From positions 13,662-77,661 of the forward strand of contig CAYYMM010000003.1 of NCBI GenBank assembly GCA_964472395.1: a DNA stretch of 64,000 bases, given 5' to 3'. This DNA comes from an uncultured bacterium. Its GTDB lineage: Bacteria > CSSED10-310 > CALFER01. The notes under the pieces are model-generated. The model ran no database searches, was not told the origin of the DNA, and saw nothing but the letters and a program-made list of their open reading frames with translations. The position numbers and the translations under genes were made by a program. Every line of letters starts with the position of its first letter. Positions within the stretch are counted from its first letter, which is position 1. Shown piece after piece: positions 13,492 to 31,640 of this stretch.

Positions 13492-13992
13492 ATGATGGAC
13501 ATGAAACGACGTAATTTCTCAGCGATCCTTGTATTCACGGCCATGGTCATGCTCGGGGGCTGCGACGACGATAACGGCGGGACGGGGCCGAAACCCGATC
13601 CGACGGCATCGAACACGCGGCAGGCGACGGTAACCTATGTGTATGACGGCGACACGATTCAGGTGAACGGAAGCGAAAAAGTCCGCTATATCGGGATCGA
13701 TACACCCGAAATCGGGGAATGTTATTATTCGGAAGCGACCAGTCGAAACCGATTTCTGGTGGACGATGAGGTTGTAACGCTTGAGATCTGCGTCGAAAGC
13801 CCGACGGATCAATACGGGCGGACGCTGGCGCATGTCTCGTGCGATGCGGGGCTGGTCAACGCGATTTTAATTCGGGAAGGTTATGCGCGAGCCTATCGTG
13901 TGCCGCCTTGTACCTCCAAAGCCAACTACTACGCAGATCTCGATCGCGAAGCCCGCGCCGCAGGCCGGGGGATGTGGAGCGCGTGTAATTAA
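13492..13992 (+). CDS. Thermonuclease (staphylococcal nuclease, SNase-like) lipoprotein
   Basis: Signal peptide with lipobox LGGC. SNase motifs VYDGDTIQV, RYIGIDTPE, DQYGRTLAHV, REGYARAY, ARAAGRGMW. Confidence 0.8.
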   Translation: MMDMKRRNFSAILVFTAMVMLGGCDDDNGGTGPKPDPTASNTRQATVTYVYDGDTIQVNGSEKVRYIGIDTPEIGECYYSEATSRNRFLVDDEVVTLEICVESPTDQYGRTLAHVSCDAGLVNAILIREGYARAYRVPPCTSKANYYADLDREARAAGRGMWSACN

Positions 13993-14723
13993 GACGACCG
14001 CTCCTCAGGATTCAGATCGCCGCGGCGCACCTGCTGATCAGACTGCCGACCGGGTTTCGGGCTGAAAACCAGCAGCGCCGACATGATCAGGATTGTCACG
14101 GGATGATACCCGGTTCTCAGAATCAGCCAGGCGATCAACGCCACAAAGGGGAAAAACAGGACGAAAAGATGCATGCGGATGATTTCCATCCGGATTATCT
14201 TCAATTTCTGAACCAAATCCTGTCGCGGCAGCAGGTCCTGCCAGTTTGCGAGCAGTATGGCGATCACCATCGGCCAGTACCGGTTGAGCAGATAGCGGCA
14301 TGGCGTGAAGAAATCCGAGTTTATGAATCCGTTTCGCCCGAAGAATTCATGTGGTTCCATTTCGGCGAAAAATGACAAAAACAGCCCATAGAAACCGAAG
14401 AAGAAGGTGATGGCGCGGAACGCGACGTACCCTCCGCCCAGAGCGACTCCGGCAATGAGCAGACTCAGCAGAGTCGAGGGAATTCGATGCGTGATCGGGA
14501 AGCGGTTCAGGAGCATCTTCTTGTGGTGGCCGCTGTGCAGGATCAGGCTGAGAGTGACCGTGAACGCGAGCGCCCAGGTATAGATCAGTCCGGTCAACCA
14601 GGTGCTCCAGCAGAATTCCTGCGTCGACCAGCGACCGTCGATGCCGAAAGAGACCGTCAGCAGGAAACCGAGAATAGCCGGAATGTGTTTATAGACGCTT
14701 CTCATCTGCACCGCATCACTCAA
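13989..14723 (-). CDS. Multi-pass integral membrane protein of unknown function
   Basis: Six or more hydrophobic helices, no soluble domain; convergent with the nuclease gene. Confidence 0.55.
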   Translation of the reverse strand: MSDAVQMRSVYKHIPAILGFLLTVSFGIDGRWSTQEFCWSTWLTGLIYTWALAFTVTLSLILHSGHHKKMLLNRFPITHRIPSTLLSLLIAGVALGGGYVAFRAITFFFGFYGLFLSFFAEMEPHEFFGRNGFINSDFFTPCRYLLNRYWPMVIAILLANWQDLLPRQDLVQKLKIIRMEIIRMHLFVLFFPFVALIAWLILRTGYHPVTILIMSALLVFSPKPGRQSDQQVRRGDLNPEERSS

Positions 14724-15102: not shown

Positions 15103-15912
15103 TCAGTGCGGGAGTGCTCCGAGAGACTGGAGGATCGAACGGGCGATCGATTCCCGTTTCGGGGTATCCTTCATGCCACCCGGCAGATCGATATTCAGGG
15201 CGAAAATCACCGGCCCCGTCGGCGTCTCGACCCAGCCAACCCACCAGCCGATCTGCGGTTCGACACGCGCCTGCCATCCGGTCTTCGCTCTCAGGATCCA
15301 ATCCCTCCCGGCCTCGACGATCATGATATCCTTGACCAGACGCTGATGTTCAACTTTGAAGGGAAGCTCGTTTCGATACAGTTTTCGCAGGAAATCCACC
15401 TGTTCCAGGGCCGAAATCCGGAGAGCGCCATCGAGCCAGAAGCGATCGACACCTCCGGACGGATCGGCGTTGCCGTACTGAATCCGAGTCAGATACTCCT
15501 TTTCACGCACCTCACCGATCTCACGCGCAAACTGCTGGTACACCCATACCGTCGAGTGCCTCATGGACGAGCGAAGCGTCTGGTCCTGATTCCAACCGTC
15601 AAAATCCCGTTTCACACCATCCCAGCGAATCACCTGGAACTCGTCCCTGACAACTCCGGCATCGAGCGCAAACAGTGCATGAGGCACTTTAAAAGTCGAT
15701 GCCGGCATGAACCGTTTCTGTGCACGCTCCACATTGTAAGCCAGCATCTCGCCAGAACGCTCGTTGAAAACGACCATCGTCCCGTCGACGCCCTGATCCA
15801 AGAAAAACGGTTTCCAGTCCAAACGCTCCACCGGCGCCTGTGCCGACACGCCGGTAACGAACGTGAGACCAACCAAGATCCAAGCTCCAACTTTCATGGG
15901 AAATCCTTTCAA
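15103..15912 (-). CDS. Class D (OXA-type) beta-lactamase
   Basis: Signal peptide. Active-site STFK, SxV-like STV, YGN, KTG and WVGWVE motifs at canonical spacings. Confidence 0.85.
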   Translation of the reverse strand: MKGFPMKVGAWILVGLTFVTGVSAQAPVERLDWKPFFLDQGVDGTMVVFNERSGEMLAYNVERAQKRFMPASTFKVPHALFALDAGVVRDEFQVIRWDGVKRDFDGWNQDQTLRSSMRHSTVWVYQQFAREIGEVREKEYLTRIQYGNADPSGGVDRFWLDGALRISALEQVDFLRKLYRNELPFKVEHQRLVKDIMIVEAGRDWILRAKTGWQARVEPQIGWWVGWVETPTGPVIFALNIDLPGGMKDTPKRESIARSILQSLGALPH

Positions 15913-16039
15913 TCGTGTGATCCTAAACTCTCAGGGATGATGCCACAGCGTGTGAGGGGACGCAACATGGCTCATCAGCAAAGAGTTGACTGATAAAAAA
16001 GGAGGAGGCAAGATAAAGGTAACAACTCATAGAGCGAAA

Positions 16040-16182
16040 GGGCGGATCGCGATCCGCCCTACCCTGAACCTGTGGCCTGCGGTGCCGAAAGGGCGGATCG
16101 CGATCCGCCCAGACTAGATCCGCCCCTAGATCCGCCCAGACTCATCCTATGGCCACGGGCAAGGGCGGATCGCGATCCGCCC
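16040..16182. repeat. REP-like array: three copies of the perfect 20-bp palindrome GGGCGGATCGCGATCCGCCC plus GATCCGCCC half-sites
   Basis: Palindromes at 16040..16059, 16091..16110 and 16163..16182. Half-sites at about 16121..16140. The flank CCTGTGGCCTGCGGTGCCGAAA is repeated at 16711..16734. Confidence 0.85.
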
Positions 16183-16208
16183 AGACAGCCCATCGCGAGG
16201 AGGACTCC

Positions 16209-16712
16209 ATGCGCTATGATCCTGAGCGACATCATCGCCGATCGATCCGGCTGCGAGGGTATGACTATGGAAAGGCAGGTTACTACTTCGTGACACTGGT
16301 CACCTACCATCGACACCAGATACTCGGCTGGATCGTCGACGGAAAAGTACGCTTGAGTCGCGCCGGAACGATCGTCGCCGAGACTCTGGAATGGCTTGGA
16401 GAGCATTTTGAGAATGTTTCCCTGGACGAATGGGTGATCATGCCCGACCACATCCACTTCATCCTCGTCATCACCAAGAGCAAGGACCCGACTCCGAAAA
16501 AACAAAAACCTCTCGGCAACCTGATCGCAGCCTTCAAGACGGTGTCCACCAAACTGATCAATCTGTGGCGTCACACCCCCGGAGAGCGTGTCTGGCATCG
16601 AGACTACTATGATCGGATCATCCGCTCGCGACAGCAGCTTTATCGTACCAGGGTATACATCCGTACCAACCCGATAAGGTGCAAGGGCGGATCGCGATCC
16701 GCCCTACCATGA
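16209..16712 (+). CDS. REP-associated tyrosine transposase (RAYT; IS200/IS605-like Y1 HuH transposase)
   Basis: GAGGAGG RBS then ATG at 16209. HuH motif MPDHIHFIL and catalytic Tyr region RDYYDRIIRS. About 165 aa. Flanked on both sides by the palindromic repeats. Confidence 0.8.
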   Translation: MRYDPERHHRRSIRLRGYDYGKAGYYFVTLVTYHRHQILGWIVDGKVRLSRAGTIVAETLEWLGEHFENVSLDEWVIMPDHIHFILVITKSKDPTPKKQKPLGNLIAAFKTVSTKLINLWRHTPGERVWHRDYYDRIIRSRQQLYRTRVYIRTNPIRCKGGSRSALP

Positions 16713-16846
16713 TCCTGTGGCCTGCGGTGCCGAAAGGGCGGATCGCGATCCGCCCCTGGATCCTGGATCCGCCCCTGGATCCGCCCCTGGATCCTGGATC
16801 CGCCCCTGGATCCGCCCAGACTCTAGATCCGCCCCTAGATCCGCCC
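16685..16846. repeat. REP-like array 2: two full 20-bp palindromes followed by tandem (CT[GA]GATCCGCCC)n units
   Basis: Palindromes at 16685..16704 and 16736..16755. Eight or more GATCCGCCC units up to 16846. The array overlaps the 3' coding ends of both the RAYT gene and the convergent ABC ATPase gene. Confidence 0.85.
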
Positions 16847-17521
16847 ATCGCGGAGATGGATCACTCGTCCTGCACGAGTCGCCACTGTCTCGTCATGGGT
16901 CACGATGAGAATGGTCCGGCCCTCCCGATGGAGCGTCAGCAGGAGATCCAGGATCTGAGCGCCGCTGCGACTGTCCAGATTGCCGGTCGGCTCGTCCGCC
17001 AGAATCAGGGACGGGTCGTTGACCAGTGCCCGTGCGACGGCGACGCGCTGCTTCTGGCCTCCCGACAGCTCGGCGGGCCGATGTCCCGCGCGATCCATGA
17101 GACCAACGCGCCCGAGCAACTCCAGGGCTCTGTCATGACGCTCGCGTCTCGACACGCCGGCATAGACAAGCGGCAACTCGACGTTTCCCGCCGCGGTCAA
17201 TCTCGGCAGGAGATTGAAGTTCTGGAATACGAACCCGATCCGGTTCTTGCGGATCCGGCTCAGTTCATCGTCATCCAGTCGCCCGACCTCACGGCCGCAG
17301 AACAGATAGTCGCCCGACGTGGGCCGATCCAGACAGCCGATAATGTTCATCAGGGTCGATTTTCCGGATCCGGACGGCCCCATCAGCGCCACGCATTCAC
17401 CCGGGTCGATCCGCGCATCGATCCGATCCAGAACGGGAATCTCCTGGCCCCCGAGCCGATACGATTTCGACAGGCTCTTCAGGAGCACCACAGGTTGGAC
17501 GCTTCCGATGGGTTCATTCAT
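16835..17521 (-). CDS. ABC transporter ATP-binding protein, MacB/LolD family
   Basis: Walker [10 protein letters not shown], signature [15 protein letters not shown], Walker [14 protein letters not shown]-loop IVTHD. Confidence 0.85.
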
Positions 17522-18743
17522 ACCGCAATGCCTCGATCGGATCGAGCGATGCAGCGCGTCGCGCGGGATACAGCCCGAAGAAAACCCCGACCGCCGCGGA
17601 CACGGTCACGGCGATCACGATGGCCTCGAACGAAAACACCATCTTCCATCCCGCGAACCGAGCAATCGAAAATCCGAACAGAATGCCGGCAAGGATCCCG
17701 ATCACACCGCCGACCCCGCTCATCACGACAGCCTCGATCAGAAACTGCCCGAGAATCTCCCGGCGTGTCGCCCCGACCGCCCTCCGTATCCCGATCTCGC
17801 GGATCCGCTGCGTCACGCTCGCGAGCATGATGTTCATGATTCCGATGCCGCCGACCAGGAGCGAAATCGCCGCGATCGCAGCCAGCACGATGTTGAAGGT
17901 CCGCTGCGTCGCCTGACTCTGTTTGAGGAGTTCCAGCGGCACGATCACATCGTAATTCTCGACACCCGAATGCATCCTTCCGAGGATTCTCCGGATGAGA
18001 TCCGCCGCGGGGAGGAGATGATCCGCCGAATCGATCATGACGGTGATCTCCGAGATCTCATGGTTCGGATCCGTGTCAAGCATCCGCTTCCGAGCTGCGC
18101 TGATCGGCACGACGAGATCCCGGTTGACGTTGCGGAACGCCAGCGGTCCGGAGGGTCCCGCCTTCACCGTCTTGTCCTCCATCACGCCCACGACCCGGAA
18201 GATTCCATTCTGAATAAGCACGGTTCCGCCAATCGCATCCTTTCCGAATTCAGAGCGGATCGCGGGCCCGATGACGCACACCCGTTCCGCACCGTCGATG
18301 TCGAACGGGAGCAGAAAACGACCTTCCGACACCATCGAGTTGCTCACCGTGAGATACTCCGGTGAGGTCGCAACGATCTGCACGGGGCACGCCCGCCCGT
18401 CGATCCGGACGGATTCGTCCCGGATGAGAACCGGTGCGACTCTGCGGACGAACGGACAATTCCCGCGAATCGCCTCGACATCGTCCATCGCCAGCCCCCG
18501 GGGATTTTTCTGTTGAGCCGTGATGAGCGCCTGGCCATCAAGTTTCTTTGCAGTGATCCGAATCGTGTTGATCCCCATCAGCGCGAGTTGATCCAGCGCT
18601 TCGACCCGAGCGCCCTCGCCGATGGCAACGCTCGCGATCACCGCCGCCACGCCGAAAATGACACCGAGCATCGTCAGGAACGACCGGAGCTTGTTCGATT
18701 GCAGCTCCATCAACCCGATTTTGACATGCTGGACGACGTTCAT
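17514..18743 (-). CDS. ABC transporter permease (MacB-type, FtsX-like with periplasmic domain)
   Basis: N-terminal TM helix, large periplasmic domain, three C-terminal TM helices with the FtsX signature. 8-nt overlap with the ATPase gene. Confidence 0.8.
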   Translation of the reverse strand: MNVVQHVKIGLMELQSNKLRSFLTMLGVIFGVAAVIASVAIGEGARVEALDQLALMGINTIRITAKKLDGQALITAQQKNPRGLAMDDVEAIRGNCPFVRRVAPVLIRDESVRIDGRACPVQIVATSPEYLTVSNSMVSEGRFLLPFDIDGAERVCVIGPAIRSEFGKDAIGGTVLIQNGIFRVVGVMEDKTVKAGPSGPLAFRNVNRDLVVPISAARKRMLDTDPNHEISEITVMIDSADHLLPAADLIRRILGRMHSGVENYDVIVPLELLKQSQATQRTFNIVLAAIAAISLLVGGIGIMNIMLASVTQRIREIGIRRAVGATRREILGQFLIEAVVMSGVGGVIGILAGILFGFSIARFAGWKMVFSFEAIVIAVTVSAAVGVFFGLYPARRAASLDPIEALRYE

Positions 18744-26502: not shown

Positions 26503-27510
26503 CTAGGACTTTATCAGCCCCATGATCTGCTTCATATCCAGCGTTTTCGATTTCGCCTGAATATCACTCATGTGCAGCGACTGCAGACTCTTCCCCTTCT
26601 GCAGCATCGACGCGAACACGGCCTTGAGCTGATTGCCGTCAATCTTCCGTCCGCCCGCATAATACTGCTTGGCGACATTCCCGAGCGCATACGTCGTCGC
26701 AAACGACACCGACGATCCGACCGCCGCGCTCCCCAGGCCTCCCAGCAGCCCGCCGCCCACGGTCCTCAGCAGCCCGCCGAACAGCTTCCTCCCCATCTGC
26801 TCGATGTACTGCCCGGTCAAACCGATCCCGAGCGTCGCCGCGAAATCCTTGATGTGCCCACGGTCCAACTCGTAATTGAACGCCTTGCCGATCTGATAGA
26901 CCATCTTCATCTGGAGGGGTAAAATGGCCATTGTCGCGAGCGACTGAGGCAGCAGTTCGAGAGCGCCACAGAGAATCGAATAATGAAGGATCGAGGCATC
27001 GAGCGGCGATCCCTCGACGGTTTCCGTCGCGGACTGCGGTGCCGTGATGGTCGGCGACGCGGTATCGATCGGTGCTTCGGCGATCGCCCGGGCGTCCTGC
27101 TCATACGCCTTCGATGCCTCGGCGTCCAACCCCATTGCACGCCGCAACTCCTCGACAAATTGCGCCTCCGGATCGCTCTGCGCGCCATCGGCGTTGCAGA
27201 TCCCGACCGCCATCTCGAAAACTGCCTGGCGCACGGCTTTCTCCGGAATATCCCCGACGATTTCGGCCAGCGTCCGCTTTTTCAACAGCGTTTCATGATA
27301 CAGATCCCGGATCTCCAGTTCGTTGGTTTCACCAAAAGTCGCCGTAATCCGACGGATTTCCGCCTGTTCGCGTTCATCGTTCACTCCGTCGGCCAACGCC
27401 GCCATGTAACAGATGCTCAGTATTGCACGTTCCTGTGGATTCATGATGCCTCCTTCCGCGTGTTCTTCGAAATCATATCGCAGTTCAGAGCCCCGCTCAA
27501 CGATCTTCAT
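26503..27510 (-). CDS. TerB-like (tellurite-resistance/co-chaperone fold) N-terminal domain protein with Gly-rich C-terminal region
   Basis: ERAILSICYMAALADGVNDEREQAEIRRI...PEAQFVEELRRAMGLD resembles the TerB fold. The C-terminal GGLLRTVGGGLLGGLGSAAVGSS part is uncharacterised. Confidence 0.5.
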   Translation of the reverse strand: MKIVERGSELRYDFEEHAEGGIMNPQERAILSICYMAALADGVNDEREQAEIRRITATFGETNELEIRDLYHETLLKKRTLAEIVGDIPEKAVRQAVFEMAVGICNADGAQSDPEAQFVEELRRAMGLDAEASKAYEQDARAIAEAPIDTASPTITAPQSATETVEGSPLDASILHYSILCGALELLPQSLATMAILPLQMKMVYQIGKAFNYELDRGHIKDFAATLGIGLTGQYIEQMGRKLFGGLLRTVGGGLLGGLGSAAVGSSVSFATTYALGNVAKQYYAGGRKIDGNQLKAVFASMLQKGKSLQSLHMSDIQAKSKTLDMKQIMGLIKS

Positions 27511-30500
27511 CCCCTCCCCGCCCGCACCGCGGCGATCAGCTTCAGGATCAGTTTGCCATACCGTTTCATGAGCGCGGGACCGACGCCCGCCACTCCACCG
27601 AGTTCCTCTTCGGTCAGAGGCTGACGCGCGGCCAGCGCATCGAGCACCTGGTTGCTGAAGATGCGGAAGGCCGGAACTCCCAGGCGACGCGACTCATCGA
27701 GCCTCCATTGCCTGAGTGCCGCATGCACGCTTGCGTCGATCCGCACCGCCGCCGTCCGCCGTTCGACTGGCGCTGTGGTCCGGGATCGAGCGGTTCTCGG
27801 GTTTCTGCCGGATACCGCGCCGGACGGCAGCGCGGGCGCGGTCCGGGACGTTTTCGCGGTTTTTCTGCGCTTCGATGCACGCTTCGCGGTCTGCTTTCTT
27901 GGGTGCGTCAGTTCGATCCCACCCACATCAGCCTGCGTGAGTTCGCGTCCGAGCTTCGCCAGAGCGATCCGCTTGTAGTGAATCGTTTCGCCTTCCTTTT
28001 CGAAGGTCTGCTCGGAAATGCTCACGATCTGATGTCTCGACAGACTGCTCAGAAGCTGTTCCATCTCGTTCCGGACGACGGGATGCGATTCCGAGAGACT
28101 CTTGTGGAGTTGTCCCGCGGTGAGACTGCCCTTGCGTCTGAGTTCACTGACGATGGCCCATATCAGGACTGCCTCGTCCGCATCGGGCGCTCTGCGGGCG
28201 GACGCGACCTGGTCCTGCGGCGCACACACATCGCAGACGCCACAGGGCCCCTCACGGTCGTCCATGTCGCCGAAATGCCGGATCAGCGCCTGCATGCGGC
28301 AGCCCGAACCTTCGGCGAACCGGCTCATTTCCTTGAGCTGAGCCTGGCGGAACGCACGCTGCTCGGCATACGCGAACGTCCAGCCCGCACTGCCGGCCCG
28401 GAACCGGTCATCACCCTCGACGATCGCTCCGCTGTGAATCCAGAGTTTCTCGATCGCATTGTCGAACACCTCGGCATCGATGCGCGTCGCCGCAAGAATC
28501 TCGTCGCGCGTCCGGAACTCCTCACCCAGCGCGGTGAAGATGCGCTCGAGAATCGCGGTTTCGGGGTAATTTTTCTGGAAGAGAAAATCCTGAATGCGCT
28601 GATCGGCATAGGAATGAAACAGAATCGCGCGCGACGGCAGCCCGTCCCGCCCCGCCCGGCCGATTTCCTGATAATAGCCCTCGATGCTCCCCGGCAGCGC
28701 GGCGTGAATGACGGTGCGGATGTCGGGTTTGTCGATCCCCATTCCGAAAGCGATGGTCGCGACGATCACATCGAGTCGTCCTTCGAGGAAGGCAGTCTGA
28801 ACCGCATTCCTCCGGGTGGGCGTCATCCCGGCATGATAGACATCCGCGGAAAAATCGCGGTTGAGGTGTTCCGCGAGCCACTCCGCGTTGCGCCGGGTAG
28901 CCGCATAGACGATCGCGGGGCGGCGCGAGGGGTCGGAGAGGATGGCGCGGGCCGCATCGAGACGCTCGTCGACGGGCCTCCCGACAATCTCGACACCGAT
29001 GTTTGTCCGGCGGAATCCGTGAATGAAACGGCGGGGCGACGGCATCCCGAGCAAGGTCACGATGTCGTCCTGAACGCGGGGGGTGGCGGTGGCCGTCATG
29101 GCGATCACGGGCGCCGAGCGGAACTCGGGGAGACGTTCGCCGAGCATCCGGTAGTCCGGGCGGAAATCGTGCCCCCATTGCGAAATGCAGTGCGCTTCGT
29201 CGACGACGATGAGGCTCGGCGGGTGCTGCTGCAACCGGTGGATGAAGCCCTGAAGCGACAGGCGTTCAGGCGCGATGAACAGATACTGCAACTCACCGGA
29301 TGCGTAGCGATTCATGATCGCATCGTATTCCGATCGTTTTTTGCCCGAATGCACGGCGTCGGATCTCAGTCCCAGCGCGGCGAGCTTGCCGGATTGATCC
29401 TCCATCAGCGCGATCAGAGGGCTGATCACGAGCGCCGACCCGCCTCGGATCAGGGCCGGCAACTGGTAGCAGAGCGATTTGCCCATGCCGGTCGGCATCA
29501 CGAGCAGCGCGTCGGTCCCGCCGATCACGGCCTCGCAGACGGCCTTCTGATACGGGCGGAATGCCGGATAACCGAAGTAATGAGACAGAGCGGTTTCCAG
29601 TGTCGGGGAGTCCGGAGGTAGGGATGGCGGCGCAGGAGACGGTTTTGGTGAGGAAACGGCAAGAGTCACGCTGGGGACGGCCGTTTCGATCGGCAACATG
29701 GGCTGCGTGGCGCTCGGGACAACCGCAGCAATCGCAGGCCGAGGCGCAGCGGCATGCGTGAAAATCCCCCTCACGATGTCCCGCACGTAGGTCTCGATGT
29801 CGCTCATGAATCGATCGAACGGTTCGGCGCCCTTTTCCATGCGCTTGAGCTTATACTCCCAGTCACCGGTCAGTTCCGGACTCCTGACGGAAGGATGCAC
29901 CGTTTCGATCAGCCGGATCCCCTTGTCCGTCGCGGAGAGGCTCTTGCCGTCACGCCGGATGAACTCGCGTTTGATCAGCGTTTCGATGATCGCGGCGCGG
30001 GTCGCGGGGGTGCCGAGTCCCCGTTCTCGCATCGCATCGGAGAGATTCCGGTCATCGAGCGTTTTCCCGGCCGTTTCCATGGCGGTCAGCAGGGTCGCAT
30101 CGGTGAGTCTCTGCGGAGGTCTCGTTTCCTTCTCGACCGCTTCGACCTTCAGAATCGACTGCGATTGCCCCTCAACTAAGGAAGACGGGAGCGAGGGCGC
30201 CTGATCGGAGTCTTTTCGTGCTTTCAATTCCAGAACTTTCCAGCCTTCCTGGCGGACCAGCGTTCCGGATGAGTGAAAGCGATCGGTGAGAGGCTCGGAG
30301 GCAACGTCACTCGTTGAAATCACATCGGTGATGACGGTCGTCTCGAGCGCGATGTGGGGCGGCAGCCAGGCGCACAGAAACCGTCGGCAGATCAGGTCAT
30401 AGAGTTTGAGTTGATCGGCGGTCAGAGTGGCCCGGTCCGCCCGGGTCGGAGTCGGGATGATCGCATGATGATCCGACACTTTGGTGTCATCGACGAACCG

Positions 30501-31640
30501 GTCCGGGATGGGGGGCGCCGGTTCATCGAACGGCCAGTGCGGGCGGTAGTGCGGAGCGACGACGGCGATCACCGGTTCGAGCGTACGGGCGATATCCGTC
30601 GAGAGATGACGCGAGTCGGTGCGGGGATAGCTGATGAGTTTTTTCCCCTCATACAGTTCCTGGGCGATGTCCAGAGTCTTCTGAGCGCTGAAACCGAACA
30701 GACGGTTCGCATGTCGCTGCAGTTCGGACAGGTCATACAGCAGTGGAGGGGCAAACGTGCGCGTTCGCGACGTCAGGGATGCGACGGTGGCTCGACCGGT
30801 TCGGACCCGCGACGCGATGCGCTCGACGAGATCCCGATCGAAGGGCAGGCGCGAGGCATCCCGGAGCGGGTCCTGAGACGTTCCGGTTCGTTTCCGGCGT
30901 TCGGTTTCCGAAAACCAGGTGCCTCGGTATACATCTGTCGTTCTATCCGCATATAGGATCATTTCGGGACGAAAATCCACGATGATCTCGAAGTATTTTT
31001 CAGGCTTGAAGTTCCGGATCGCCAGTTCCCGCTCGACGATCATCGCAAGCGTCGGAGTCTGGACACGGCCGACGGACACGAGATCGTTGCCCCGGATCGT
31101 GTAGGCGCGGGAGAAGTTCATGCCGACCAGCCAGTCGGCGCGGCTGCGGGCGTGGGCGGAACGCGCGAGATTGTCATAGTCGGACGAGGGTTTGAGCGTA
31201 TCGAAACCGCGGCGGATGGCGGCAGGGGTCAGCGATGAGATCCAGAGCCGTCGGACGCGTTTTTTGCATTTTGCGGCTTCGTAGATGTACCGGAAGATCA
31301 GCTCGCCCTCGCGCCCTGCATCCGTCGCGCAGATGATCTCGGAGACATCCTTCCGGTTCATGATCTGACGGACGATGTTGAACTGCTGGGCGGTTTTCTC
31401 GATGACGACCACCGGCCAGTCCGGCGGGATCATGGGGAGCGTCGCGCGGGACCAGGTTTTCCACGAGGCGTTGATCTGATGGGGTTCGGGCAGGGTGACG
31501 AGATGTCCGATGGCCCAGGTGACGATGTATCCGTTTCCTTCGAGGGCACCGGATGCTCCATCGAGTTTTTTCGTGGCACCGAGACAATCCGCGATGTCAC
31601 GGGCGACAGACGGTTTCTCGGCAACGACAGCGACAGGCAT
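27507..31640 (-). CDS. Topoisomerase III (type IA) - RecQ helicase fusion protein, 1377 aa
   Basis: aa 1-628: Toprim (VAEKPSVA, ICATDAGREGE) and topo IA core with active-site LISYPRTDSRHL (Tyr338). aa 629-680: Pro/Ser/Ala linker. aa 681-1377: RecQ DEAH helicase (YPAFRPYQ, MPTGMGKSLCYQLPAL, VVDEAHCISQWGHDFRPDY), RQC zinc module (GSGCRMQ...GPCGVCDVC) and C-terminal HRDC. No stop between the modules. Confidence 0.85.
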   Translation of the reverse strand: MPVAVVAEKPSVARDIADCLGATKKLDGASGALEGNGYIVTWAIGHLVTLPEPHQINASWKTWSRATLPMIPPDWPVVVIEKTAQQFNIVRQIMNRKDVSEIICATDAGREGELIFRYIYEAAKCKKRVRRLWISSLTPAAIRRGFDTLKPSSDYDNLARSAHARSRADWLVGMNFSRAYTIRGNDLVSVGRVQTPTLAMIVERELAIRNFKPEKYFEIIVDFRPEMILYADRTTDVYRGTWFSETERRKRTGTSQDPLRDASRLPFDRDLVERIASRVRTGRATVASLTSRTRTFAPPLLYDLSELQRHANRLFGFSAQKTLDIAQELYEGKKLISYPRTDSRHLSTDIARTLEPVIAVVAPHYRPHWPFDEPAPPIPDRFVDDTKVSDHHAIIPTPTRADRATLTADQLKLYDLICRRFLCAWLPPHIALETTVITDVISTSDVASEPLTDRFHSSGTLVRQEGWKVLELKARKDSDQAPSLPSSLVEGQSQSILKVEAVEKETRPPQRLTDATLLTAMETAGKTLDDRNLSDAMRERGLGTPATRAAIIETLIKREFIRRDGKSLSATDKGIRLIETVHPSVRSPELTGDWEYKLKRMEKGAEPFDRFMSDIETYVRDIVRGIFTHAAAPRPAIAAVVPSATQPMLPIETAVPSVTLAVSSPKPSPAPPSLPPDSPTLETALSHYFGYPAFRPYQKAVCEAVIGGTDALLVMPTGMGKSLCYQLPALIRGGSALVISPLIALMEDQSGKLAALGLRSDAVHSGKKRSEYDAIMNRYASGELQYLFIAPERLSLQGFIHRLQQHPPSLIVVDEAHCISQWGHDFRPDYRMLGERLPEFRSAPVIAMTATATPRVQDDIVTLLGMPSPRRFIHGFRRTNIGVEIVGRPVDERLDAARAILSDPSRRPAIVYAATRRNAEWLAEHLNRDFSADVYHAGMTPTRRNAVQTAFLEGRLDVIVATIAFGMGIDKPDIRTVIHAALPGSIEGYYQEIGRAGRDGLPSRAILFHSYADQRIQDFLFQKNYPETAILERIFTALGEEFRTRDEILAATRIDAEVFDNAIEKLWIHSGAIVEGDDRFRAGSAGWTFAYAEQRAFRQAQLKEMSRFAEGSGCRMQALIRHFGDMDDREGPCGVCDVCAPQDQVASARRAPDADEAVLIWAIVSELRRKGSLTAGQLHKSLSESHPVVRNEMEQLLSSLSRHQIVSISEQTFEKEGETIHYKRIALAKLGRELTQADVGGIELTHPRKQTAKRASKRRKTAKTSRTAPALPSGAVSGRNPRTARSRTTAPVERRTAAVRIDASVHAALRQWRLDESRRLGVPAFRIFSNQVLDALAARQPLTEEELGGVAGVGPALMKRYGKLILKLIAAVRAGRG

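Follow-up and report, generated by a model that had tools for sequence, protein, structure and literature searches.

We analysed a 64,000-nt stretch of DNA (the window) from an uncultured bacterium of the lineage CSSED10-310 (CALFER01; GenBank assembly GCA_964472395.1, contig CAYYMM010000003.1, positions 13,662 to 77,661 of the forward strand). Positions 16040-16846 of the window hold a gene for a REP-associated tyrosine transposase (RAYT) and, around it, copies of the 20-bp perfect palindrome GGGCGGATCGCGATCCGCCC. This locus is very probably a REPtron of subclass 2.4, or Group 4, in which a vertically inherited RAYT of the Y1 HuH type sits amid its cognate repetitive extragenic palindromic (REP) hairpins. 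REPtrons of this kind are already known, and the locus in the window is a new and somewhat atypical member. The initial annotation had proposed a REPtron from the sequence alone, and this proposal was upheld by the family match of the protein, by its profile and fold similarity to E. coli TnpA-REP (PDB entry 4ER8) and by the dispersed copies of the 20-mer in other genomes.

The RAYT gene encodes 167 amino acids, and exactly this product is on record as a called gene. The protein matched the NCBIfam family NF047646 REP_Tyr_transpos with 62.2 bits (E=5e-17). In an alignment of 27 sequences, the N-termini of the homologues all aligned at the methionine of ATG 16209. The alternative start at ATG 16149 (16149-16712, 187 aa) was rejected, as the homologues, the recorded gene call and the Shine-Dalgarno-like sequence favour 16209. 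The HuH motif PDHIHFIL contains H81 and H83 (codons 16449-16457), and the catalytic tyrosine is Y150 in the motif VYIRTNP (codon 16656-16658). Residues H81, H83, Y150 and N154 were invariant in the alignment, P155 was nearly so, and the segment with H81 and H83 aligned with EHMH of 4ER8 and DHVH of ISDra2. A profile made from the 27 sequences matched 4ER8 with E=1e-6 and placed PNHLH over PEHMH and YIxxNP over DYIYINP, so that Y150 is the counterpart of the catalytic Y115 of 4ER8. The initial annotation had recognised an IS200-like Y1 transposase with the HuH motif HIHFIL, and both points held. It had placed the catalytic tyrosine in RDYYDR, however, and this segment aligned with the non-catalytic PRFWEH of 4ER8.

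In the AlphaFold model of the protein (pLDDT 81.6), Y150 lies within the helix formed by residues 141-152. When the model was compared with the PDB by Foldseek, the top 30 matches were all Y1 transposases, with E values from 8e-7 to 7.5e-5, and the best superposition was obtained with 4ER8 (TM 0.62, root-mean-square deviation 3.5 Å). On the predicted structure, the gene is that of a Y1 HuH transposase, with a fold like those of TnpA-REP and the IS200/IS608 transposases. Compared with a sister strain, the RAYT gene had a ratio of nonsynonymous to synonymous substitution rates (dN/dS) of 0.11 at a dS of 0.19, and the dN/dS of the neighbouring ATP-binding cassette (ABC) ATPase gene was 0.056.

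The palindrome GGGCGGATCGCGATCCGCCC occurs exactly five times in the window, as the initial annotation had counted, and all copies lie within 16040-16755. No sixth match was found in the 64 kb with up to three mismatches allowed, and 0 were expected from shuffled sequences. The nonamer GATCCGCCC was found 19 times in the window compared with 1.75 expected, and 18 of the 19 were inside 16040-16846. The clustering of repeats at the locus was thus confirmed, far beyond chance. The RAYT gene is bracketed by an 82-nt direct repeat, and in each unit of this repeat (doublets A and B in Table 1) two palindromes are separated by a 31-nt spacer. The arrangement of three copies upstream and two downstream of the gene, as first described, was correct for the three copies ahead of ATG 16209 and for copy 5 behind the gene, but copy 4 lies within the last nine codons of RAYT. 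The claim that the repeat supplies the end of the protein held: copy 4 is in frame and encodes the last residues CKGGSRSALP, and homology to the family stops at about residue 157 (NPIR). Judged from the alignment, the tail of the RAYT is genuinely REP-derived, and REP copy 4 replaces the C-terminal tail.

The tandem array downstream of RAYT was reported by TRF with a period of 31, 3.3 copies, a score of 151 and sub-periods of 12 and 19. Its exact GATCCGCCC units, which include the right arm of copy 5, number seven, so that the '8 or more' units given at first are reached only if the two truncated GATCCTG modules are counted as well. No half-REP tandem arrays were present at the other loci bearing the 20-mer, nor across the other 198 loci examined. 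On the minus strand of 16736-16850 there are seven GGG/GGGG runs spaced by 8-15 nt, and these might form G-quadruplexes.

When the whole window was searched for perfect hairpins with a stem of at least 9 bp, only the five REP palindromes and two unrelated ones were found. The REP stem measures 10 bp and qualifies as that of a 'long' REP. Doublets A and B were each predicted to fold into one long hairpin, of -31.7 and -33.4 kcal/mol, respectively, with z about -7.5 (-7.7 for doublet A); they do so because each REP is already a perfect palindrome. As judged from the flanking sequences, all five REPs of the window have the same orientation, reading foot, palindrome and TT(T)CG or TTGC on the minus strand. 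The two REPs of a doublet thus follow each other head-to-tail, which sets the doublets apart from REPINs, where two REPs are inverted. The feet on the minus strand were GGTA in copies 1 and 4, GTCT in copies 2 and 3, and CCAG in copy 5. Outside the REP family, an isolated hairpin with an 11-bp stem, GGGGGATCGCAgacagcaTGCGATCCCCC, lies between open reading frames (ORFs) at 2013-2041 and has the motif GATCGC in common with the REP.

The same locus was compared between strains. The common gene order is a gene for class D beta-lactamase, RAYT, and a convergent macB-type ATPase gene with its permease gene. Six assemblies of a sister lineage have this order, with the RAYT locus at the corresponding site, and so does a second assembly, from a strain almost the same as that of the window. 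The nucleotide identity to the sister lineage is about 93% (about 89-95% over aligned blocks), and the sister RAYT protein is 96% identical. Only one RAYT copy is present in the 64-kb window. A fixed site together with purifying selection fits a domesticated RAYT and would not be expected for an insertion sequence (IS). From these comparisons, RAYT appears to be a vertically inherited, single chromosomal gene that is not mobile as a unit.

The palindromes around the gene differ among the three versions of the locus, and the arrays change unusually fast. Where the sister lineage has one palindrome upstream of the gene, the window is longer by 51 nt, exactly the length of one REP with its spacer. 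The window insert of about 35 nt that carries REP copy 3 is missing in the sister strain, which has a degenerate form of REP copy 4 (GGGCGGATCACGATCCGCCC). On the downstream side, two half units are present in the sister, and the array of the nearly identical assembly is shorter than that of the window by one 31-nt unit. The indel lengths of 51, about 35 and 31 nt thus equal a REP plus spacer, a single REP and a tandem unit, respectively.

Table 1. Features at and next to the REPtron (positions in the window)
Feature	Position	Strand	Remarks
Class D (OXA-like) beta-lactamase	15103-15912	-	directly upstream of REPtron; NF012161 308 bits, cut-off 250
Doublet A	16029-16110		REP copy 1 + 31-nt spacer + REP copy 2
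REP copy 1	16040..16059		minus strand GGTA, GGGCGG...CCGCCC, TTTCG; GTAG foot overlaps stem by one G
REP copy 2	16091..16110		no GTAG foot; minus-strand flank GTCT
Two upstream half-REP units	16117..16137	+	GATCCGCCC CTA GATCCGCCC; units at 16117 and 16129
REP copy 3	16163..16182		in 5' leader of RAYT; part of ~35-nt insertion ACGGGCAA-REP-AGACAGC
Shine-Dalgarno-like GAGGAGG	16197..16203	+	5 nt upstream of ATG 16209; read from sequence
RAYT / TnpA-REP gene	16209..16712	+	167 aa; homology, profile alignment, fold, dN/dS
Doublet B	16674-16755		REP copies 4 + 5; 93% identical to doublet A
REP copy 4	16685..16704		in RAYT frame, encodes GGSRSAL; minus-strand GTAG foot
REP copy 5	16736..16755		downstream of RAYT
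Half-REP module array	16747..16846	+	7 exact GATCCGCCC, 2 truncated GATCCTG; periods 7, 12, 31 nt
MacB/LolD-type ABC ATPase	16835..17521	-	convergent; last 3 codons + stop GGG CGG ATC TAG = last half-REP unit

The family placement rests on homologues of the RAYT, of which there were 998, with E values down to 1e-50 and 45-58% identity. Many of them are named 'REP element-mobilizing transposase RayT', and their hosts include Chloroflexota, Bacteroidales, Nitrospirota and cyanobacteria. The top homologues share NH[LIFV]H, WQ and YIxxNP, and nearly all carry an internal REP peptide, R-GGSRTAPT, after the HuH strand. In the window protein, YIRTNP has the signature Y---NP, which marks class 2 RAYTs, whereas Y---Q is of the IS200 type (PMC6006769). 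Subclass 2.4 of TnpA-REP, as defined by Quentin et al. 2018 (PMC6006769), is the same as the Group 4 described by Bertels et al. 2017 (PMC5581495). Its members have the motifs NH[IFV]H, WQ and YIxNNP and a median length of 194 aa; their REPs are 'long' or 'double-foot' (GT[AG]G ... C[TC]AC), REPs in frame between HuH and tyrosine are unique to the subclass, and the subclass is centred on Cyanobacteria and Bacteroidetes with other phyla scattered (PMC6006769). The 16-mers flanking Group 4 genes are of modest copy number, about 14 per replicon (PMC5581495).

In a survey of 80 metagenomic homologue loci, 61 genes contained a GC-rich palindrome, at positions of about +250 to +300 nt, and the internal and flanking palindromes matched within two mismatches in 28 of the 37 loci that had both. 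This pattern is the published signature of subclass 2.4 (PMC6006769). The commonest core in the family, GGGCGGTTCGCGAACCGCCC, was found in 19 loci, and the window core, which also occurs in loci L128, L148 and L064, differs from it by one compensated base pair. Pairs of RAYTs with the same REP core had 61.6% identity compared with 51.5% for pairs with different cores (the pairs are not independent), and the nearest relatives of the window RAYT all carry a core of the class GGGCGG[T/A/G]TCGCGA[A/T/C]CCGCCC. Enzyme tree and REP class thus agree in the comparison that the initial annotation had proposed. On sequence grounds, the window protein is best placed as a divergent member of subclass 2.4 / Group 4. 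At locus L064 (1478-2041), from the Chloroflexota metagenome-assembled genome (MAG) JAIOOU01, a RAYT 48% identical to that of the window has the same 20-mer in frame, where it encodes GRGGSRSAPA after the HuH motif, and a different palindrome, GTAGGGGCAGGTCGCGACCTGCCCCTAC, stands after the stop codon of this gene.

The exact 20-mer was also searched for in species-representative genomes, each hit being taken with 8 kb of context, and it was found in at least 118 loci of other genomes from many phyla. The matches listed include Anaerolineales and other Chloroflexota, Dehalococcoidia, 'Desulfovibrionaceae UBA6814' (17 loci), Ozemobacteraceae, Gemmatimonadales, Latescibacterota, Omnitrophota, Fibrobacteria, Acidobacteriota, cyanobacteria and a Pasteurellaceae isolate. 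Among the 124 copies in the matches listed, GTAG stood before 58 and CTAC after 62; 32 copies had both feet, which makes a 28-nt palindrome, GTAGGGGCGGATCGCGATCCGCCCCTAC, and 56 had a single foot. Among the same matches, a RAYT was within 8 kb at one of the 118 loci, where the 20-mer is in frame inside the gene. The other 117 loci had no tnpA nearby, so elsewhere the 20-mer is a dispersed element. No paper with the exact 20-mer was found in the searchable literature. REP cores are not usually identical across phyla, and the identity seen here points to horizontal spread or strong constraint.

Two of the 118 loci, L083 and L106, come from a MAG of sample ERZ724080, which also yielded the sister-strain locus. 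Sample name and tetranucleotide profile were used to assign them to the sister genome; the tetranucleotide correlation with the window was r=0.93-0.94, equal to that of the syntenic loci, while other loci reached at most 0.82. Together, L083 and L106 hold four more perfect copies of the 20-mer, all intergenic: one lies 22 nt past a stop codon, two form a tandem pair ahead of an ABC transporter gene, and the fourth is inside a longer palindrome. The palindrome is therefore probably not unique to the REPtron. The initial annotation had expected a REP to be abundant and intergenic; the four copies attributed to the sister genome are intergenic, whereas within the 64 kb no copy lies outside the locus.

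Several observations weigh against the assignment to a subclass 2.4 REPtron. The NF047646 score is under the 80-bit equivalog cut-off of that family, and Pfam PF01797 Y1_Tnp scored 20.3 bits, under its 23-bit gathering cut-off; the latter shortfall is a matter of the model threshold and not a biological feature, and PF01797 is recognised in many of the homologues. In the window protein, DHIH stands in place of NH[IFV]H and WH in place of WQ, and neither it nor the sister protein has an internal REP, as SKDPT replaces RGGSRTAPT. The GTAG tetranucleotide, which had been expected at the 5' side of the palindrome, is present in only two of the five window copies (copies 1 and 4, with one foot each), is lacking in the other three, and was found in none of the four dispersed copies of the sister genome. 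With the 20-mer confined to the locus in the 64-kb window, its abundance in the source genome is unproven, and generic GTAG-footed palindromes elsewhere in the window were not found beyond chance. The absence of dispersed copies from the window fits the modest copy number of Group 4 (PMC5581495). The indels, finally, could all have been produced by slippage or recombination without RAYT.

Two other explanations of the locus were weighed against these data. An active IS of the IS200/IS605 type would move whole as a hairpin-tnpA-hairpin unit, with the 82-nt direct repeats as its left and right ends. Such an element would account for the repeat that brackets the gene and for the five hairpins in the same orientation on one strand, as at IS200/IS605 ends, and the fold matches the transposases of IS608, ISDra2 and IS200 about as well as TnpA-REP. 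We nevertheless regard this as highly improbable. The unit stands at the same site in a lineage of about 93% identity, with a dS of 0.19 and a dN/dS of 0.11, only one copy is present in 64 kb, and the tyrosine motif is that of class 2 RAYTs and not that of IS200 (PMC6006769). Moreover, the palindrome lacks a nearby tnpA in 117 of the 118 loci among the matches listed, and the upstream 'end' in the sister is a single REP, which makes the 82-nt repeat a recent local duplication.

It is also improbable, though somewhat less so, that the RAYT is an inactive relic and that the palindromes are host elements, such as bidirectional hairpins at transcript ends, stabilisers of mRNA or protein-binding sites, with all variation of the arrays due to slippage or homologous recombination. 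The position of the arrays between two convergent genes and of one dispersed copy 22 nt after a stop codon would suit transcript ends, but no intrinsic-terminator-like T tract follows the hairpins. The periodic modules of 7, 12 and 31 nt are typical of slippage, yet the insertion of about 35 nt consists of one complete REP with flanks and is not a multiple of the tandem unit. The GTAG foot, which E. coli TnpA-REP requires, is missing from most copies in the lineage, and the window has no dispersed copies. The gene, however, is intact and has kept every invariant residue of the family, those of HuH and tyrosine motifs included, and the purifying selection on it is comparable with that on the neighbouring ABC ATPase gene (0.11 and 0.056, respectively).

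If the locus is a REPtron, as we prefer to read it, the RAYT would, by analogy with E. coli TnpA-REP and IS608/ISDra2, bind the REP hairpin in single-stranded DNA, for example in the lagging-strand template, and would read the foot tetranucleotide beside the stem. Tyr150 would cut while His81 and His83 hold the metal, and a 5'-phosphotyrosine link would be formed. The RAYT would then rejoin the DNA ends, by which REP units may be excised, duplicated or inserted elsewhere, and the gene itself would stay. By the same analogy, the enzyme would be catalytically active and specific for strand and foot, and each of the indels may have been made either by RAYT or by slippage. The half-REP arrays would most likely be by-products: a REP arm would have seeded microrepeats that contain GATCC, and these would have multiplied by replication slippage or by unequal recombination with one another; the periods of 7, 12 and 31 nt are most simply explained by slippage.

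A further-reaching idea is that the in-frame REP, located in the loop after HuH in most homologues and at the C-terminus here, lets the enzyme be transferred together with a 'seed' substrate. The lineage of the window would then be at a later stage, in which the internal seed has been lost and the feet are eroding, and the indels and arrays would be footprints of aberrant cleavage by RAYT and not of slippage. We consider this idea unlikely, but if it is true, co-transfer of enzyme and seed could explain the identical 20-mer in MAGs labelled with ten or more phyla.

Other roles of the repeats were considered. In a scan of 15800-17000 against Rfam, all matches were below threshold and to unrelated hairpins of miRNAs and sRNAs, so that no known RNA family is present. 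A scan for promoter and terminator consensus sequences returned 0 sites, so that a role as intrinsic terminators is unsupported. There are 807 GATC sites in the window (12.6 per kb), and the locus is only about 3-fold denser. This number is 3.3 times the mononucleotide expectation (807 vs 242) and yet equals the expectation from a trinucleotide Markov model. GATC is thus common throughout the window and no special Dam hotspot is shown; a role of the palindromes in Dam methylation, as suggested in the initial annotation, is speculation. The ORFs that overlap the arrays (16618-16848 on the minus strand, 16679-17830 on the plus strand and 16059-16598 on the minus strand) were treated as repeat or antisense artefacts.

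The array also reaches into the end of the convergent ABC ATPase gene, where GGGCGGATC+TAG makes up the last three codons and the stop. The initial annotation had the repeat supply the ATPase end HLRDGRI. The last codons do coincide with a half-REP unit, but HLRDGRI* is the protein end in the window and sister lineages alike, and the match to ABC-ATPase profiles extends to the profile ends. The sister has GAC GGC AGG ATC TGA where the window has GAT GGG CGG ATC TAG. Over the last ten codons there are five differences, of which four are synonymous and the fifth is the stop (TGA in the sister, TAG in the window). As the sister makes the identical tail from non-repeat codons, the tail is ancestral and the repeat creates no new C-terminus. 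Either the array converted the gene end to a repeat unit encoding the same residues, or a native GATCCTGCC end helped to seed the array; the truncated GATCCTG modules of the array match the native ATPase gene end of the sister. The supply of TAG stops by REP ends is a known phenomenon (PMC3733652).

Some differences and conserved features were noted among the neighbouring genes. The beta-lactamase gene is found in the corresponding place in the sister lineage and is therefore not a recent acquisition. About 1.5 kb from the REPtron, the gene beside an SNase-domain gene differs between the window strain and the sister (13989-14723 of the window and positions 932-1870 of locus L120, respectively). 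This local replacement has an unannotated product in the window, 238 aa as called in the nearly identical assembly (L126) and a 244-aa ORF in the window list, and a 312-aa 4Fe-4S (Fer4) protein in the sister. Farther away, 27507-31640 on the minus strand encodes a 1377-aa fusion of DNA topoisomerase III (residues 5-628) and RecQ helicase (residues 683-1026). This fusion is common, as both Pfam domain types were present in 120 of the 120 matches listed; the named ones among the listed matches are mostly from Acidobacteriota and are annotated plainly as topoisomerase 3. As to affiliation, the best named relatives of a large housekeeping-type protein, from Acidobacteriota, shared only about 50% identity, and the tetranucleotide profile pointed, weakly, to an Ozemobacteraceae MAG as nearest.

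The locus resembles several known systems and differs from each in some respects. Its close homologues all have the traits of subclass 2.4 / Group 4: a length of about 170-200 aa, the subclass motifs, long double-foot REPs, in-frame REPs, a distribution over many phyla and a low REP copy number. The locus itself differs in the DHIH and WH motifs, in that the window REPs mostly lack the GTAG/CTAC feet, in its tandem half-REP arrays, and in the REP at the C-terminus rather than in the loop after HuH. In the REPtron of E. coli K-12 (TnpA-REP/YafM, 4ER8; PMC6006769), several REPs likewise surround a Y1 HuH enzyme gene present in single copy, but that enzyme is of subclass 2.2 and has about 18% sequence identity to the window RAYT, and its REPs are imperfect palindromes in inverted pairs (bacterial interspersed mosaic elements, BIMEs), whereas those of the window are perfect 20-bp palindromes in one orientation. 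The REPIN-RAYT system of Pseudomonas (Bertels & Rainey 2011, PMC3116915) is alike in its vertically inherited single RAYT and in doublets that can fold as a long hairpin; in the window, however, the doublets are head-to-tail and the copy number is apparently tens at most and not hundreds. GTAG REPs were described in Chloroflexi, Cyanobacteria and the Planctomycetes-Verrucomicrobia-Chlamydiae (PVC) group by Di Nocera et al. 2013 (PMC3733652), who also reported REPs that give TAG stops to neighbouring ORFs and REPs in frame inside genes; at the locus in the window, the overlap with the stop codon is by a half-REP unit and not by a full REP. IS200/IS605 elements (IS608, ISDra2) have the same fold, presumably the same chemistry, and hairpins on one strand, but the window unit is fixed in the chromosome and not mobile as a unit, has Y---NP instead of Y---Q and has no tnpB.

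The current understanding of REP/RAYT systems is unchanged by this locus. For annotation, the locus is a reminder that repeats give rise to peptides like GGSRSA(L/P) and GRIAIRP and to short ORFs that run through such arrays. With this locus, subclass 2.4 / Group 4, which is the least studied REP-associated group, gains a well-documented REPtron from a lineage that is uncultured and poorly characterised. Its three strain-level versions are snapshots of REP gain, loss and tandem expansion beside a fixed RAYT under selection, and this makes the locus a convenient natural test case in which events catalysed by RAYT can be set against slippage.

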